Shown in pieces: positions 2,646-31,332 of a DNA stretch of 64,000 nt (within the stretch, counting starts at the first letter, position 1; the number at the start of each line of letters is the position of its first letter). The stretch is from a virus (lineage: Duplodnaviria; Caudoviricetes): the IMG/VR virus record IMGVR_UViG_2799112278_000002, positions 20,718 through 84,717 of that record; one strand, given 5' to 3'. Made by a program: the position numbers and the translations under genes. The notes below the pieces were generated by a model, which saw nothing but the letters and a program-made list of their open reading frames with translations, did not search any database and was not told the DNA's origin.

Positions 2646-4684
2646 CACCACACCCCCATTCTTACCCGTATTACATTATTCTCATCATACACTATGATCA
2701 AATTATCTTTTATCTCTATCCTCGCCCCTGTAGTAGCAGTACGCAGCGTTCCTATAACCCCGCCCGAGAGAGCTCCGAGATTACTGGCTGTAAGCTTCCC
2801 GGTTATATCAAGATTGCCAGAAATGACTGTATTTCCATCAATCTCAATCATCCGGCCTTTTAACTTAACCCCAGCAGGACTTAAATTAATCCGCGAAACA
2901 ATAATCTCACCAGTTAAATCATCGTTGCCTTGCGACACAAGATCTATTTGATCCTTTAAAGCGGTAATTGCTGAGTATGCACAGTTTTCTGGGGATTTTT
3001 CTAATTCTGTAACGATTGCGGATATACTGTTGTTGGTTATTTGAAGATCTGCAGTACTAGCTTTTGAAGCTACTGTTGTTTGAATGCTATCTGCCTTTTG
3101 GTTTACGGCCGATATCTGTCCGGCTTGATTACTAACCGTAGAGGTTAAGCCTTCAATACTTACCCTTAAATTCGCTAAGTTTGGCATCTTATTAGAGGGT
3201 GCCGTCGGCGATTGAGTAACAGCCAAATTTATCTGATCAGGTAATTGGTCAATTCGTGTAGCCTGCTGTGACACCTTGCCATCAGCATCAGCTTTGTTCG
3301 CCACGACTGTTTGATGTATTCCATTGACATCAATTTCAACCGCTGCAAGCCGTGTTGTCAGAGGGTTAATTTGAGTAGTTGCTATGTCATTTTTAGCGGA
3401 TGTGACTGCTGCAGTTATCTGCCCGGGTACTGCATTAATCTGACTGTTCAGTGTGGATACTTTCCCGTCAGCATCCGTTTTGTTTGCCGAAACAGTAGCC
3501 TGTATAGCATCCGTAGTTTGTTTAATTTTCGTAAACGAGATGTAAGGCTGCGTAACATTTGTGAATGGATCAGTATTTAAGTTGGTCACAACAGAAGAAA
3601 TCTGACCAGCCGTCTGCGTAATTTGACTAGCCTGCTGAGATAACTTGCCATCCGTATCGGTTTTATTGGCCGAGACAGTTGAAGCTATACTATCAGCTTG
3701 CTGCTTCAGGCTTGAAATCGCAGTATACTGACTAGCTGCACCGGGAGCCTGGTTGAGTTTACCAACTACAGCCGTAATGCTATCAGCGTTTTGGGTAATA
3801 GAAGAAGATTGCTGCTGAAACTTATTGTCAGCATCTGACTTGTTTGCAGATACGATTGATGCGATACCATCCGTGGTTTGTTTGATCTTAGTGAAAGATA
3901 CGTAGCCAGGCTGATCTTTGTCCAGCTCAGCTACAACAGAAGAAATCTCGCCTGCCGTCTGAGTTAGCTGGCTGGTGAGATTTGTTATTTTACCATCAGC
4001 ATCTGACTTGTTTGCAGATACGATTGTAGATATTGAATCTGCTGTTTGCTTTAAGCTTGAAATCGCAATATATTGGTCTTCTGCTCCCGGGGCTTGATTG
4101 AGTTTGCCGACAACAGAAGAAATGTTATTGGCCGTTTGTGTAATTAATGATCTGTTTTCACCGTCAGCTTGTGCTAATTCATTAACTTTATCATTGAACG
4201 TGGCATGACTAACTTTCGCCTGATCCAGTGCTGCAATTGCTTGATTAACACCCTCTTGCATGTTTGGAAGATCGACATTTTTGACCTCATCAATCTCCCC
4301 TCTCAGAATATCTTCAGCCTCAGCAATCGCATTTCGGATACTAGGGATATCGACGTTTTTGACTTCATCGATCGTACTATTAATACTGGCTTCGACTGCC
4401 GCAATAGTCTCTCGAATTTCAGTATCAATATTGACGGCTAACTCCTGCTGTGATATCAACAATTCAGTGATGTAATCGTTTAAAGCCTTAATTCGCTGCT
4501 CAATAAACTCATTTACCTTTCTTATAGCCTCGTTCATTGCTGCAATTCTCTTTTTTTGCTCATCAGACAATACATTTTCGAATTGTGTTAGTGTTTTCGC
4601 ATTAGCATCCAGAATACGATTCAGTTGTTCAAAGTTCCTCTCCAAACTCTCCGGGGTAACTCGTGTATCTAGTCGCTGAGCCAT
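2645..4684 (-). CDS. Central tail spike/fibre: coiled coil with ~55-aa repeats and lambda-J-like C-terminus
   Basis: Repeats of ISSLKQTADSI..VSANKSDADGK; C-terminus GARIEIKDNLIIVYDENNVIRVRMGVW typical of gpJ-like proteins. Confidence 0.7.
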   Translation of the reverse strand: MAQRLDTRVTPESLERNFEQLNRILDANAKTLTQFENVLSDEQKKRIAAMNEAIRKVNEFIEQRIKALNDYITELLISQQELAVNIDTEIRETIAAVEASINSTIDEVKNVDIPSIRNAIAEAEDILRGEIDEVKNVDLPNMQEGVNQAIAALDQAKVSHATFNDKVNELAQADGENRSLITQTANNISSVVGKLNQAPGAEDQYIAISSLKQTADSISTIVSANKSDADGKITNLTSQLTQTAGEISSVVAELDKDQPGYVSFTKIKQTTDGIASIVSANKSDADNKFQQQSSSITQNADSITAVVGKLNQAPGAASQYTAISSLKQQADSIASTVSANKTDTDGKLSQQASQITQTAGQISSVVTNLNTDPFTNVTQPYISFTKIKQTTDAIQATVSANKTDADGKVSTLNSQINAVPGQITAAVTSAKNDIATTQINPLTTRLAAVEIDVNGIHQTVVANKADADGKVSQQATRIDQLPDQINLAVTQSPTAPSNKMPNLANLRVSIEGLTSTVSNQAGQISAVNQKADSIQTTVASKASTADLQITNNSISAIVTELEKSPENCAYSAITALKDQIDLVSQGNDDLTGEIIVSRINLSPAGVKLKGRMIEIDGNTVISGNLDITGKLTASNLGALSGGVIGTLRTATTGARIEIKDNLIIVYDENNVIRVRMGVW
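3440..4160 (-). repeat. Coding tandem repeats (~5 x ~55 aa) in the spike gene
   Basis: DNA repeat tcagcatctgacttgtttgcagatacgattg near 3829 and 3997; alternating AISSLKQ and SFTKIKQ units. Confidence 0.8.
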
Positions 4685-23916: not shown

Positions 23917-23990
23917 TGGTGGAGCGACTAGGAGTCGAACCTAGGACTGTCGGGTTACGGCCGAGCGTGATACCATTTCACCATCACTCC
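23917..23990 (-). tRNA. Atypical tRNA with GUA (Tyr) anticodon, short variable loop, encoded CCA
   Basis: Acceptor GGAGTGA/TCGCTCC-A-CCA, D arm GTGA/TCAC, anticodon loop CCGTAAC, T arm CTAGG-TTCGACT-CCTAG. Confidence 0.8.
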
Positions 23991-23993
23991 ATT

Positions 23994-24070
23994 TGGCAGG
24001 GATAACTGGACTCGAACCAGTGCATAAGCGGTTAACAGCCGCTTGCCTTACCTTGCTTGGCTATATCCCT
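23994..24070 (-). tRNA. tRNA-Asn(GUU), encoded CCA
   Basis: Acceptor AGGGATA/TATCCCT-G-CCA, anticodon arm AGCGG-CTGTTAA-CCGCT, T arm ACTGG-TTCGAGT-CCAGT. Confidence 0.92.
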
Positions 24071-28220: not shown

Positions 28221-28252
28221 AAAAAAAGCCGCCCAACCTTGTGTTAGGCGAC
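28221..28252 (-). terminator. Intrinsic terminator ending the micro-ORF operon
   Basis: GTCGCCTAAC-ACAAG-GTTGGGCGGC-TTTTTTT. Confidence 0.8.
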
Positions 28253-28272
28253 TGCTGCATATTCTCATATTT

Positions 28273-28464
28273 TTAATAGTTATCAATAAAATCCATTGCC
28301 TCCTGTAACGAACCAGCATCCCATTCAGATGATCTTAGGTTAGCGGGATAATCCAATTCCTCCGGGGTATAGCAGCGGAAAATTATGTGTTCAACACCGT
28401 CGCCGCTGCGCTCAATATCCTGTTTGATTGCCCAGCCTTTATATTTCCGTGTTATCTTACGCAC
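28273..28464 (-). CDS. Small hypothetical protein (63 aa, acidic C-terminus)
   Basis: GTG start, RBS AAGGAGG. Confidence 0.7.
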   Translation of the reverse strand: MRKITRKYKGWAIKQDIERSGDGVEHIIFRCYTPEELDYPANLRSSEWDAGSLQEAMDFIDNY

Positions 28465-28500
28465 TTATTATTCCTCCTTGTGGCGGGGCTGTTAGCCCTG

Positions 28501-28581
28501 TCACTCTGCGTTATATTTACGCCACTCTTCGCGGCATTGCAGGAAAACGCGTAACGACATCCATTTATATCCCTTTTTCAT
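28501..28581 (-). CDS. 26-aa peptide ending YNAE, not in track
   Basis: RBS AAGGAGG; MKKGYKWMSLRVFLQCREEWRKYNAE. Confidence 0.55.
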   Translation of the reverse strand: MKKGYKWMSLRVFLQCREEWRKYNAE

Positions 28582-28633
28582 ATTCATCCTCCTTAGTTGA
28601 CCCCGCTTGCCGCATTACCGGCCCCGGAGGCCG

Positions 28634-28927
28634 TCACTCTGCGTTATAGGTGTAGCCTAATACTGATTTTGAGTAAATGGCCTTATCGGTTTTGGCTAAA
28701 GTGCGACTGCCTGCAAAAACTGCATATTCATAATTTCCTTCTGACCATTTGTAAACCAATGACTGGTTATAATCTATTGTCCTACTGCGATAACGCTCCA
28801 TTCCTGACTTACGAATAAGACCTAACAGCCAGTTTAATTGTTTGTCCGAAAGTTTCATTCTTGCAGTACCGTAACAATCCGGCTTGCGTTGGCCGGTAAA
28901 CATATTAGCCAATTCGGTGTGTGTCAT
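28634..28927 (-). CDS. Small hypothetical protein ending YNAE
   Basis: RBS AAAGGA; ends GCAGAGTGA+hairpin. Confidence 0.7.
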   Translation of the reverse strand: MTHTELANMFTGQRKPDCYGTARMKLSDKQLNWLLGLIRKSGMERYRSRTIDYNQSLVYKWSEGNYEYAVFAGSRTLAKTDKAIYSKSVLGYTYNAE

Positions 28928-28998
28928 CGCTATCATTCCTTTCGTCTGGCTGTGGTTGTGACCGTCTGCCTGCCAGCATTAGGCCGGGATAACCCGGC

Positions 28999-29151
28999 TC
29001 ACTCTGCTTTAATCTTGTTCAGCCTTTCGGCTGCTCGTTCCGCGTCATCGCGGGTGTGGTGCCTGCTTTCCGTGTTGTAATTTACGTCAACGACTACCCA
29101 TCTATATCCGCAATGATACAAGCTTGGGTTAGCAACTGCTCTGTATACCAT
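28999..29151 (-). CDS. 50-aa protein ending KAE, not in track
   Basis: RBS GGAGG; MVYRAVANPSLYHCGYRWVVVDVNYNTESRHHTRDDAERAAERLNKIKAE. Confidence 0.65.
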   Translation of the reverse strand: MVYRAVANPSLYHCGYRWVVVDVNYNTESRHHTRDDAERAAERLNKIKAE

Positions 29152-29183
29152 CGTTACCGCCTCCGTTTATTTATCTTGATTTA

Positions 29184-29213
29184 ATTATAAACTAAGATAT
29201 TTATAAATGTCAA
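29184..29213 (-). promoter_or_regulatory. Consensus sigma-A promoter of the micro-ORF operon
   Basis: TTGACA-18-TATAAT; ATTTATAAAT palindromes at 29199-29208 and 29238-29247. Confidence 0.75.
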
Positions 29214-29282
29214 TAATTCTTATAAATATTTTTATTGATTTATAAATTAAGATATTGTAGTATGATAGTTGGAGGGGATATG

Positions 29283-29534
29283 ATGCCAAGATCGCCAAGA
29301 GTGCCAAAAGAAGAAGCCTTGCAAATTGAATTTGAATTTAAAAAGCATATAAATGCTGCCGGAAGCAATGTTACCGACACTGTACGCCGCTTAAATGAAG
29401 AATACGGCACCACAGAAACTCCGCAGGCCGTAACTCAACAGCTAAAGAATGGTACAATGCCAGTATGGAAGCAAAATCGCATTGCTAAGGTACTGGGTTT
29501 TAAGATCAAATGGGAACGGGAGGAAGAAAGATGA
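29283..29534 (+). CDS. Small HTH-like regulator
   Basis: RBS GGAGG; VTDTVRRLNEEYG..ETPQAVTQQLKNGT...IAKVLGF helix pattern. Confidence 0.6.
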   Translation: MPRSPRVPKEEALQIEFEFKKHINAAGSNVTDTVRRLNEEYGTTETPQAVTQQLKNGTMPVWKQNRIAKVLGFKIKWEREEER

Positions 29535-29733: not shown

Positions 29734-29784
29734 TTTACAAAGGAGAACATTTGTTCTAAAATGACAATGCTAAAACATATGTTC
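29734..29784 (+). promoter_or_regulatory. SOS promoter with two Gram-positive LexA boxes
   Basis: TTTACA-17-TAAAAT; GAACATTTGTTC at 29745-29756 in the spacer; AAACATATGTTC at 29773-29784. Confidence 0.8.
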
Positions 29785-29800
29785 TATTGAGGTGGTAAGT

Positions 29801-30034
29801 GTGACAGATAAAAAATTCGTGGACGTAACAGCGAAGCATAGCCGGGACGGTAAAGTAAAGCTACTGTCAATAACGTGGGAAGATGGGAAGGAATACAGTG
29901 TTGATCGGGTGCTGGATGTGAGAATGGCTGCTGCTCTTAAAGCTGGGGGCCAGGGCATGCGATATACTTGCCGAATTCATGGTCGAGAAGTCTACTTGTT
30001 CTTCGATGAAGGTCGCTTTTTTATTGAAAGTTGA
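29801..30034 (+). CDS. Conserved small partner of UmuC-like polymerases
   Basis: WEDG..Y.VDRV...AA.LKAGGQGMRYTC.I.G motif; directly upstream of the Y-family polymerase. Confidence 0.7.
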   Translation: MTDKKFVDVTAKHSRDGKVKLLSITWEDGKEYSVDRVLDVRMAAALKAGGQGMRYTCRIHGREVYLFFDEGRFFIES

Positions 30035-30093
30035 AGGTCACATTATAGATGTGGCCTTTTTATTCTATGTTTGCTCGAGGGGGTAATCGCAAT

Positions 30094-31332
30094 ATGAGCC
30101 GTACCATTCTCCATATCGATCTAAATAACTTTTACGCCTCCGTCGAATGCCTGTATAACCCAGAAATCCGTGATAAGCCAGTAATCGTATGCGGCGATGC
30201 AGAAGCCAGGCACGGCATTGTCCTTGCCAAAAACGGACCGGCAAAAGCCATGGGAGTTAAAACCGGCGATGTAATTTGGCAGGCCAAACTCAAATGCCCA
30301 GGCTTAATTGCGGTACCGGCAGACTTCCGCAAGTACCTGCGTTTTTCTCGCCTGGCCAAGTCAATATACGCTGACTATACAGACCGCATCGAAGCATTTG
30401 GCATTGATGAGTGTTGGCTGGATATAACAGGTACGGAGCAGATTTTCGGGGATGGTGAAGCTGTGGCAAATAAAATACGACACCGCTTCAAAGAAGAATT
30501 GGGCCTCACGGCTTCAGTCGGTGTCTCCTGGAGCAAGATTTTTTCTAAGCTCGGCAGCGATATGAAAAAACCGGATGCAACTACTGTCATTACTCCGGAG
30601 AACTTTCGTGAAAAAGTATGGCCTCTGCCGGTGGGCGATTTATTATATGTCGGCCGATCCACACGAAAGAAGCTCCAGAACCGTGCGATATTAACCATTG
30701 GCGATTTAGCGAATCGAGACATACATAGCCTACGCCTGCTGCTGGGCGTATGGGGCGAAACACTTTGGCATTTTGCGAACGGACTTGATACGGCGCCAGT
30801 GAAATTTCTTGGCGAAAAAAGCATTGTTAAATCTGTTGGCAACAGCACCACTGCTGTGCGAGATCTACAGAATAATGAAGATGTCAAAATGCTTGTTTTC
30901 GTCTTAGCTGAAAGCGTTGCGGCTCGCCTCCGGGAGCATGGACTAAAATGTACAACTGTATCGATCAGCGTCCGAGACAAAGAACTCAATACGTTTGACC
31001 GTCAGGGTAAGTTATCTATGCCGACGTTTCTTTCTGGGGACATTGCCCAAAAAGCGCTCGATTTGTTTGCTGCAAACTACCGATGGGATAAATCGATCCG
31101 GAGCATTGGTGTTCGGGGAGCCGACCTGGTAACGGCTGACGGCCATATTCAGTTAGACCTATTTAGCAAGGATCAAAGACAAATGGAAAGGTTGGAAGCC
31201 ACGATCGATACAATCCGCAGACGCTTTGGACAATACAGTCTGCAGCGCTGTACAATGCTGTTCGACAAGCGCCTAACTGGCTTTAATCCCCGTGAGGAAC
31301 ATGTTATTCATCCTGTTTCATACTTTAAATAA
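30094..31332 (+). CDS. Y-family DNA polymerase (UmuC/DinB/ImpB-like)
   Basis: HIDLNNFYASVE, IDECWLD, SKLGSDMKKP, QLDLF clamp motif. Confidence 0.92.
   Translation: MSRTILHIDLNNFYASVECLYNPEIRDKPVIVCGDAEARHGIVLAKNGPAKAMGVKTGDVIWQAKLKCPGLIAVPADFRKYLRFSRLAKSIYADYTDRIEAFGIDECWLDITGTEQIFGDGEAVANKIRHRFKEELGLTASVGVSWSKIFSKLGSDMKKPDATTVITPENFREKVWPLPVGDLLYVGRSTRKKLQNRAILTIGDLANRDIHSLRLLLGVWGETLWHFANGLDTAPVKFLGEKSIVKSVGNSTTAVRDLQNNEDVKMLVFVLAESVAARLREHGLKCTTVSISVRDKELNTFDRQGKLSMPTFLSGDIAQKALDLFAANYRWDKSIRSIGVRGADLVTADGHIQLDLFSKDQRQMERLEATIDTIRRRFGQYSLQRCTMLFDKRLTGFNPREEHVIHPVSYFK

Follow-up and report, generated by a model that had tools for sequence, protein, structure and literature searches.

Probable type-P5 twister ribozyme copies, one damaged and two truncated, at the gene junctions of a prophage accessory operon

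The operon and its repeated units

We analysed a 64,000-nucleotide (nt) stretch of DNA, hereafter the window (G000:C1:152809-216808, in a 4.6-Mb genome). The window is a prophage, with genes for a tail fibre, portal, large terminase, helicases and methyltransferases, and an integrase from 62804 onward. Inside it, the minus strand carries a single unit made up of a promoter, four small open reading frames (ORFs) of 50, 97, 26 and 63 amino acids (aa) and a terminator. The initial annotation had proposed this operon, and the promoter, the ORF coordinates and the terminator all upheld it; good Shine-Dalgarno sites stand ahead of all four ORFs (Table 1). The first three ORFs end in a repeated unit. 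We find that the three units are very probably copies of the type-P5 twister ribozyme that sit at the cistron junctions of this accessory operon, one of them damaged and two truncated.

The unit was first noticed as the motif GCAGAGTGA with a GC hairpin behind it where ORFs 1 to 3 end, and we found the hairpin directly after the motif in all three copies. The 9-mer occurs three times in the 64 kb, each time at the end of one of these ORFs, against an expectation of 0.31, and none of 100 shuffles reached three. Of 21 copies in the whole genome, only those at this operon are clustered and have hairpins behind them. The initial annotation also described a continuation, TAATGC..GGCA.GC..GGTCA with a ribosome-binding site (RBS), after two of the units. 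It is indeed present in units 1 and 2, in which TAATGC.GGCA.GC..GGTCA precedes a Shine-Dalgarno site. A direct repeat of 16 identical nt, TATAACGCAGAGTGAC, occurs in both units 2 and 3 at a spacing of 133 nt.

The motif corresponds to the 5′ part of a type-P5 twister, a member of the self-cleaving ribozyme class that Roth et al. reportedly described in 2014. An Rfam scan retrieved the family (RF02684, clan CL00120), in line with the earlier suggestion of an RNA element. The match to unit 1 covers 29008..28950 (29.6 bits, E 3.7e-4 in 700 nt), and that to unit 2 covers 28643..28604 with a local end (29.9 bits). Each of these two independent matches has an E of about 3e-4 in a 700-nt search, or about 0.03 across the 64 kb, and they lie at equivalent positions. 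The RF02684 consensus (cGCAGAGgG, P1 hairpin, UAAUGCgGCAaga, cCGGUCcCAAGCCCGg) accounts for every element listed in the initial annotation. GCA is the 5′ strand of stem P2, GAGUG is the internal loop L1 that carries a strand of pseudoknot T1, and P1 is formed by the GC hairpin. The scissile U-A step lies in UAA, UGC(N) closes P2, the next two bases belong to pseudoknot T2, and the P4 loop begins with GGUCACAA. These are the defining features of twisters, namely the essential stems P1, P2 and P4, the pseudoknots T1 and T2, the conserved nucleotides of L1 and L4, and the U-A site (PMC5408937).

Parsing 11 units into these elements, we found at least seven different P1 helices. T1 appeared as GUG:CAC, GUG:UAC, GUG:CAU and UGG:CCA, T2 as GC:GC or GG:CC depending on the subtype, and P4 as CGG/CCG, GGGG/CC-A-CCGC-type and CCUGG/CCAGG. 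The compensatory changes in P1, P4, T1 and T2 are the covariation expected of a real twister fold.

The same assignment explains why unrelated ORFs have identical ends. L1 is GAGUGA in this phage lineage, and the opening nine bases of the ribozyme therefore encode Ala-Glu-stop for any upstream ORF. The shared 3′ ends thus arise because the first 9-10 nt of the ribozyme overlap the last two codons and the stop, and not from common ancestry. At least ten mutually unrelated ORFs end as ..AE* in twister units, or as ..AECQG* where UGA is replaced by UGC: ORFs 1-3 of the window, three in the related genome G042, two in the related locus L018, and one each in L016, L025, L026 and L027/G036. In a class-wide sample, 11 of 151 genomes carried twister-P5. 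In 9 of 10 further copies from this sample, the upstream stop lay 3-16 nt ahead of the unit rather than inside it. Abutting is therefore general, and the overlap is a feature of this lineage.

Table 1. Features of the small-ORF operon and its divergent neighbour, in window coordinates.
Feature	Position	Strand	Remarks
Promoter, sigma-70-type	29213..29184	-	TTGACA-18-TATAAT; 12/12 consensus positions match
ORF1	29151..28999	-	50 aa; ends ..KAE-UGA inside unit 1
Unit 1	29008..28941	-	Probable twister-P5-like copy, subtype A, without 4 nt (CGAU) of the P4 3′ strand; RF02684 29.6 bits
ORF2	28927..28634	-	97 aa from second ATG 28927, where its homologues begin (100 aa from upstream ATG 28936); ends ..NAE-UGA inside unit 2
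Unit 2	28643..28598	-	Probable truncated twister, subtype B; RF02684 29.9 bits
ORF3	28581..28501	-	26 aa from ATG 28581 (28 aa from upstream ATG 28587); ends ..NAE-UGA inside unit 3
Unit 3	28510..28484	-	Probable 5′ half of a twister: P2 5′ strand, L1, P1 hairpin CAGGGCUAAC..
ORF4	28464..28273	-	63 aa; GTG start; conserved final gene of the operon
Intrinsic terminator	28253..28227	-	11-bp stem and T-run; -20.3 kcal/mol, z = -5.4
Divergent putative regulator	29280..29534	+	84 aa; 42% identity with its divergent counterpart in the contig C11 locus
Operator-like direct and inverted repeats (ATATCTTARTTTATAA)	29172..29254		Repeat D2, inverted repeat I1; flank the two divergent promoters, that of the operon and that of the 84-aa gene

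Condition of the units, related copies and gene exchange

Judged by their sequences, none of the three units in the window is intact. Unit 1 has P2 AGCA/UGCU, L1 GAGUG, P1 GCCGGG/CCCGGC, UAA and a predicted cleavage site between U28981 and A28980. Its pseudoknot partners are present, as T1 GUG:CAC and T2 GG:CC pairings can form, and the covariant T2 is also seen in the intact orthologues. The 3′ strand of P4, CCG, has been cut down to C-A-G by the 4-nt deletion: unit 1 reads ..ACGGUCACAACCAC----AGCCAG.., in comparison with ..ACGGUCACAACCACCGAUAGCCAG.. in eight intact subtype-A copies (L018, G042 and six others). Our judgement is that unit 1 is probably crippled for cleavage.

Unit 2 has P1 CGGCC/GGCCG, P2 CGCA/UGCG, L1, UAA, a predicted site between U28617 and A28616, and the 5′ strand of T2. 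It equals the twister of contig C11 and L016 in which everything beyond GGGGUCA has been replaced by the RBS of ORF3, and so it lacks the P4 loop, the P4 3′ strand and hence both L4 pseudoknot partners. Unit 3 keeps CGCAGAGUGA and the P1 hairpin, and it is devoid of the cleavage site, UAA, the P2 3′ strand, P4 and the L4 partners. Over 25 nt it shares 96% identity with the 5′ half of an intact twister (L014:2314-2367, 46.7 bits) that lies between homologues of ORF2 and ORF4. What lies between the two TATAACGCAGAGTGAC copies, namely ORF3 and the remainder of unit 2, has the appearance of an insertion through recombination of two different twisters. Twister activity requires P1, P2, P4, T1, T2 and the L4-P4/L1-T1 core (PMC5408937), and by these published structure-function rules units 2 and 3 cannot cleave.

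Searching related genomes and metagenomic contigs, we found copies of 34-53 bits against RF02684, most of them over the cut-off, that follow homologues of ORF2 or ORF4 or hold the same position in the operon. Intact counterparts of unit 2 occur at C11:134377-134430 (43.6 bits), directly after a 95% identical ORF2 paralogue in the same genome, and at L016:2071-2124 (53.1 bits). Unit 1 has intact orthologues at G042 L010:1501-1560 (42.3 bits) and L018/L019:1385-1446 (34.3 bits). An exact search with the subtype-A 3′ half returned nine further copies, six in IMG/VR viral contigs and three in genome records labelled Pelosinus fermentans, Propionispora sp. and 'Eubacteriales' metagenome-assembled genome (MAG). 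Relics like unit 3, consisting of CGCAGAGUGA and a P1 hairpin with an RBS next to it, are found at G042 L010:2594-2640 and at 1945-1975 of L018.

The C11 locus (G000:C11:133300-135700, L009) is a second copy of the operon, with a divergent 84-aa regulator, a promoter, a 112-aa ORF, the ORF2 paralogue, the intact twister, a 61-aa ORF and a terminator. Its twister is the only one above threshold in the genome. Two other hits in the genome were dismissed as chance: a pattern match at C10:60658, within apparent coding sequence, and a match of 19.5 bits at C10:21710.

Other features were noticed in related loci. At L021:1430-1540 (Pelosinus fermentans MAG label), only a 3′ fragment of a subtype-A twister is present, with a direct repeat of about 29 nt (TTTCAATACATCTAATGTGTTTGTTACTC) on both sides; it may be the scar of an insertion or a duplication. 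In L022 (Propionispora sp., around 3885-3950, minus strand), a GAAUCCCCGGCCUAGCCGGGG hairpin is joined directly to a subtype-A 3′ half. The GAAUCCCCGGCCUAGCCGGGG hairpin ends other ORFs as ..ESPA* in L017 and G042, and the chimera indicates recombination between the halves of unlike units. Directly after the last small ORF, at L017:2697-2765 and L010:2797-2862, comes a three-way junction that resembles a hammerhead (stem I, CUGAUGA, stem II, GAAA, stem III, then UA before the would-be cut). Its stems II and III differ between the two loci by compensatory changes, and Rfam cmscan did not list it at E <= 0.5. A hammerhead pattern scan of the window gave chance-level results, the sole site being within a coding region.

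The cargo between the units varies, as the initial annotation had anticipated: in related prophages unrelated ORFs are flanked by the same units. The L018/L019 locus is syntenic with the window, with a divergent regulator, promoter, small ORFs, ORF4, terminator, a 106-aa ORF, a 133-aa ORF and a Fer4_12 gene. The last two (the Fer4_12 gene being radical SAM-type) match the HNH and radical SAM genes of the window in size and order. Between the conserved flanks, L018/L019 carries five different small ORFs, and the sole window homology between the flanks of L018 is a 109-nt island around unit 1 (82% identity). Comparing C11 with the window, we find a shared block (29005..28598, 95.6% identity) that runs from within unit 1 to within unit 2; beyond both of its edges the ORFs differ. 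Units, including 5′-half and 3′-half relics, precede different ORFs in L014, L017 and G042.

The breakpoints fall after GGGGTCA in unit 2 of the window, after GGTCACA in L016, inside P2/L1 in unit 1 of C11, and after the P1 loop in unit 3 of the window and in G042. We saw no integrase gene beside the array in the window or in the related loci read, a survey made without an integron-integrase family model; the one integrase that turned up in the window, a phage integrase, lies about 34 kb from the array. Variable breakpoints and the lack of an adjacent recombinase gene argue for general or illegitimate recombination at conserved sequence, and not for site-specific capture. The initial interpretation therefore stands for the RNA element and for ORF swapping between units, and is not supported for the dedicated recombination or capture site.

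Small gene products and prophage context

The products of the four ORFs gave few clues to function. Against Pfam, PHROGs and PADLOC, ORFs 1-4 had no match beyond a marginal one of ORF1 to phrog_11443 (E 0.0085). These results lend no support to the Acr-like, anti-defence role suggested in the initial annotation, nor do they count against it. Among 5.8 billion proteins, ORF1 had no homologue except itself, and ORF2 had only two outside its own genome. ORF2 is conserved as a protein (C11 paralogue 95%, P0002 85%, P0003 73%); a search of genome contigs, viral contigs and 400 genomes of the class returned no relatives of it. ORF3 had no homologue in any of the related loci read; it could be a genuine micro-ORF, or recombination may have produced it incidentally. 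Homologues of ORF4 with 75-86% identity were present in four other loci. The structural model of ORF4 (pLDDT 82.7) shows a three-stranded sheet and a C-terminal helix. Foldseek searches of PDB and BFVD with this model found nothing at E <= 0.001, and the best rows were uncharacterised small phage proteins at E about 0.1. The ORF2 model (pLDDT 57.8) was too poor for a structural search.

The operon is flanked by packaging-side genes (HNH, radical SAM) on one side and by a Y-family polymerase on the other. The divergent 84-aa gene had no Pfam match, and in L018 an unrelated HTH_26 gene occupies its position. From their arrangement, the ATATCTTARTTTATAA repeats look like putative operators for the divergent protein.

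Two adjacent tRNA genes lie inside the prophage near the packaging genes (window 23920-24070, minus strand; Rfam tRNA 56.7 and 64.8 bits). On the other side, within 29734-29785 (plus strand), a promoter-like site is overlapped by two sequences resembling SOS (Cheo) boxes, GAACATTTGTTC at 29745-29756 and AAACATATGTTC at 29773-29784. Downstream of them are an 80-aa ORF (29792-30034) and a Y-family (ImpB/UmuC-type) DNA polymerase (30049-31332). This arrangement suggests a LexA-controlled mutagenic polymerase module within the prophage. The host appears to be a Sporomusales-type member of the Negativicutes, given the labels on the genome records with subtype-A copies and on one ORF4 homologue, which is annotated from an Anaerosporomusa subterranea MAG.

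Proposed mechanism, competing explanations and comparison with known systems

By analogy with prophage hammerheads, an intact copy would let the RNA cut itself about 20 nt past the stop codon. The upstream message would then end in the P1 hairpin with a cyclic phosphate, and the downstream message would start with a 5′-OH, the P4 hairpin and the RBS, so that intact units would turn a polycistronic transcript into gene-sized mRNAs. The operon of the window is most likely expressed as a single transcript, because units 2 and 3 appear unable to cleave and unit 1 is probably crippled; the relic hairpins would be passive stabilisers at most. At the DNA level, general recombination between units would swap ORFs, since the units are the only conserved sequence between the variable genes, and truncated copies would be its scars.

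A broader proposal is that the twister unit serves as a portable gene junction. It would give an ORF its last two codons and stop, the RBS of the next ORF being within about 10-25 nt of the unit in this lineage. Recombination from copy to copy would then be the main route of exchange for small accessory ORFs, with half-ribozymes as the scars. We advance this proposal tentatively, as it is somewhat more likely to be wrong than right. Were it true, the upkeep and spread of the ribozyme would owe as much to a role in DNA as to RNA cleavage. Our literature search found no paper on twister-mediated recombination or on an overlap of twister and stop codon.

Several points weigh against our reading of the locus. 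Units 1 and 2 score below the RF02684 gathering cut-off of 37.6 bits, and unit 3 has no RF02684 match at all. Unit 1 retains the cleavage site, both pseudoknot partners and the outer GGC/GCC helix, which leaves room for residual activity. We infer self-cleavage and transcription of the copies in this lineage from their sequences, and recombination at the units from breakpoint positions in about 15 loci rather than from a statistical test against other intergenic sequence. Any biological role of bacterial twisters is itself putative.

The possible residual activity of unit 1 leads to the most serious of the competing explanations, in which the 4-nt deletion is tolerated and one cut between U28981 and A28980 would place ORF1 and ORFs 2-4 on separate RNAs. 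In addition to the helix just mentioned, unit 1 keeps P1, a 4-bp P2, UAA, L1, the T1 partner CAC, the T2 partner CC and the loop-closing G-C pair. However, its P4 3′ strand is C-A-G, whereas 8/8 intact subtype-A copies have CCG or UCG, and P4-L4 is key to the active twister structure (PMC5408937). The score of unit 1 does not beat that of a clearly truncated copy, L016:1739-1793 (30.9 bits). Moreover, the C11 sister of unit 1 has the same 4-nt deletion and has also lost UAAUGC, which suggests decay. We thus regard an active unit 1 as unlikely, though deserving of real weight. Twister-derived units may instead have been co-opted as protein-binding sites, or as processing or stabilising hairpins that couple the termination of one ORF to the initiation of the next, with selection keeping the 5′ halves. 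The recurrence of 5′-half relics with an RBS directly after them, in the window, G042 and L018, is what co-option would predict, and unit 3 is far closer to its L014 counterpart than is the adjoining ORF4, which is only 71% identical. But the relics are short and uneven in extent, their hairpin sequences vary, no conserved protein partner is encoded nearby, and such short stretches cannot tell recent recombination from selection. We consider co-option improbable.

A repeated, imperfect, hairpin-containing unit that bounds unrelated ORFs, with cargo varying between relatives, also resembles a site-specific recombination or capture site, either integron attC-like or a single-stranded DNA hairpin, served by a dedicated recombinase. 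The twister assignment explains the unit fully, with covariation in RNA helices and pseudoknots. Breakpoints are scattered over many positions within units instead of a single crossover point, the loci read have no integrase beside the array, and every unit lies in the sense orientation of the transcript. Very little credence is left for a dedicated site. We give next to none to recoding, in which UGA and hairpin would act as a bacterial selenocysteine insertion sequence (SECIS), a readthrough signal or a frameshifting signal that extends the small ORFs. A stable hairpin does stand directly after UGA, and the DnaX frameshift element matches weakly over unit 1 (17.3 bits, E 0.3). Yet the readthrough extensions are short and have no counterpart in homologues: the ORF2 homologue of L014 has UGC for UGA and stops three codons later, and that of L015 ends ahead of the unit. 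The hairpin and its flanks fit the twister model far better, the DnaX score being half its cut-off. Matches to other RNA families were rejected as well, since PyrR205 (18 bits) and rliA (22 bits, over the terminator) were, like DnaX, far under their cut-offs. Units 1-3 as terminators or attenuators were also rejected, their hairpins having no T-run after them.

We therefore return to the twister reading, under which an apparent new cassette system is replaced by a known one. The Rfam cut-off misses the copies of the window, and degraded or lineage-specific twisters are accordingly under-annotated. In this lineage many unrelated ORFs draw coding sequence and their stop codon from the ribozyme core itself. 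Together with its relatives, the locus offers a small natural set of twisters, whether intact, 4-nt-deleted, half or chimeric, among which the cargo has been swapped. This set could be used to probe the role of twisters in gene expression and as recombination junctions in the accessory regions of phages.

Set against typical twister-P5 (RF02684), the units show the same order of elements, namely a P2 strand, L1 GAG(N)G, P1, UAA, the other P2 strand, T2, and P4 with a loop U-NNN-AA-NN. They also resemble it in the covariation of T1 and T2, in their placement just past one ORF and just ahead of the next RBS, and in orthologues that exceed the cut-off. They differ in that the copies of the window are incomplete and below the cut-off, that L1 GAGUGA of the lineage overlaps the upstream stop, and that subtype A has T2 GG:CC and one extra A in the P4 loop. 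Perreault et al. (2011) reported multiple hammerheads flanking variable genes in prophage operons, with cleavage of the native polycistronic RNA shown in vitro (PMC3088659). Similar to those operons, several small ribozymes here stand between short, variable, mostly unannotated prophage genes. In contrast, the class here is twister, most copies of the window are relics, and a hammerhead-like motif occurs in the related L017 and L010 but not in the window.

The promoter-early stem-loop (PeSL) motifs, which mediate modular shuffling in T4-type phages (PMC2839356, PMC4122927), offer another parallel. Both are conserved intergenic regulatory motifs of about 50-70 nt that flank small variable ORFs in a hyperplastic region and offer homology for insertion, deletion and replacement. 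Unlike twister units, PeSLs are promoter-plus-terminator DNA/RNA signals and not ribozymes, and they do not overlap coding ends. In units 1-3 we found no promoter-like site other than two weak 9/12 matches, and no T-run after the hairpins. The likeness is functional only, and exchange at the twister units is proposed here from sequence comparison. In integrons, too, an imperfectly conserved hairpin-forming unit (attC) recurs at the 3′ ends of promoterless ORFs, and the cargo varies. However, no integron integrase is adjacent in the window or the loci read, the crossover point is not constant, and conservation follows an RNA catalytic core and not R/L boxes.

In summary, the twister class and ribozymes between the small genes of phage operons are already known, ribozyme-punctuated prophage operons having been described since 2011. 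Specific to this case are copies that have decayed and score under the threshold, a ribozyme core from which different ORFs take a common coding end and stop, and exchange breakpoints that fall inside the units.

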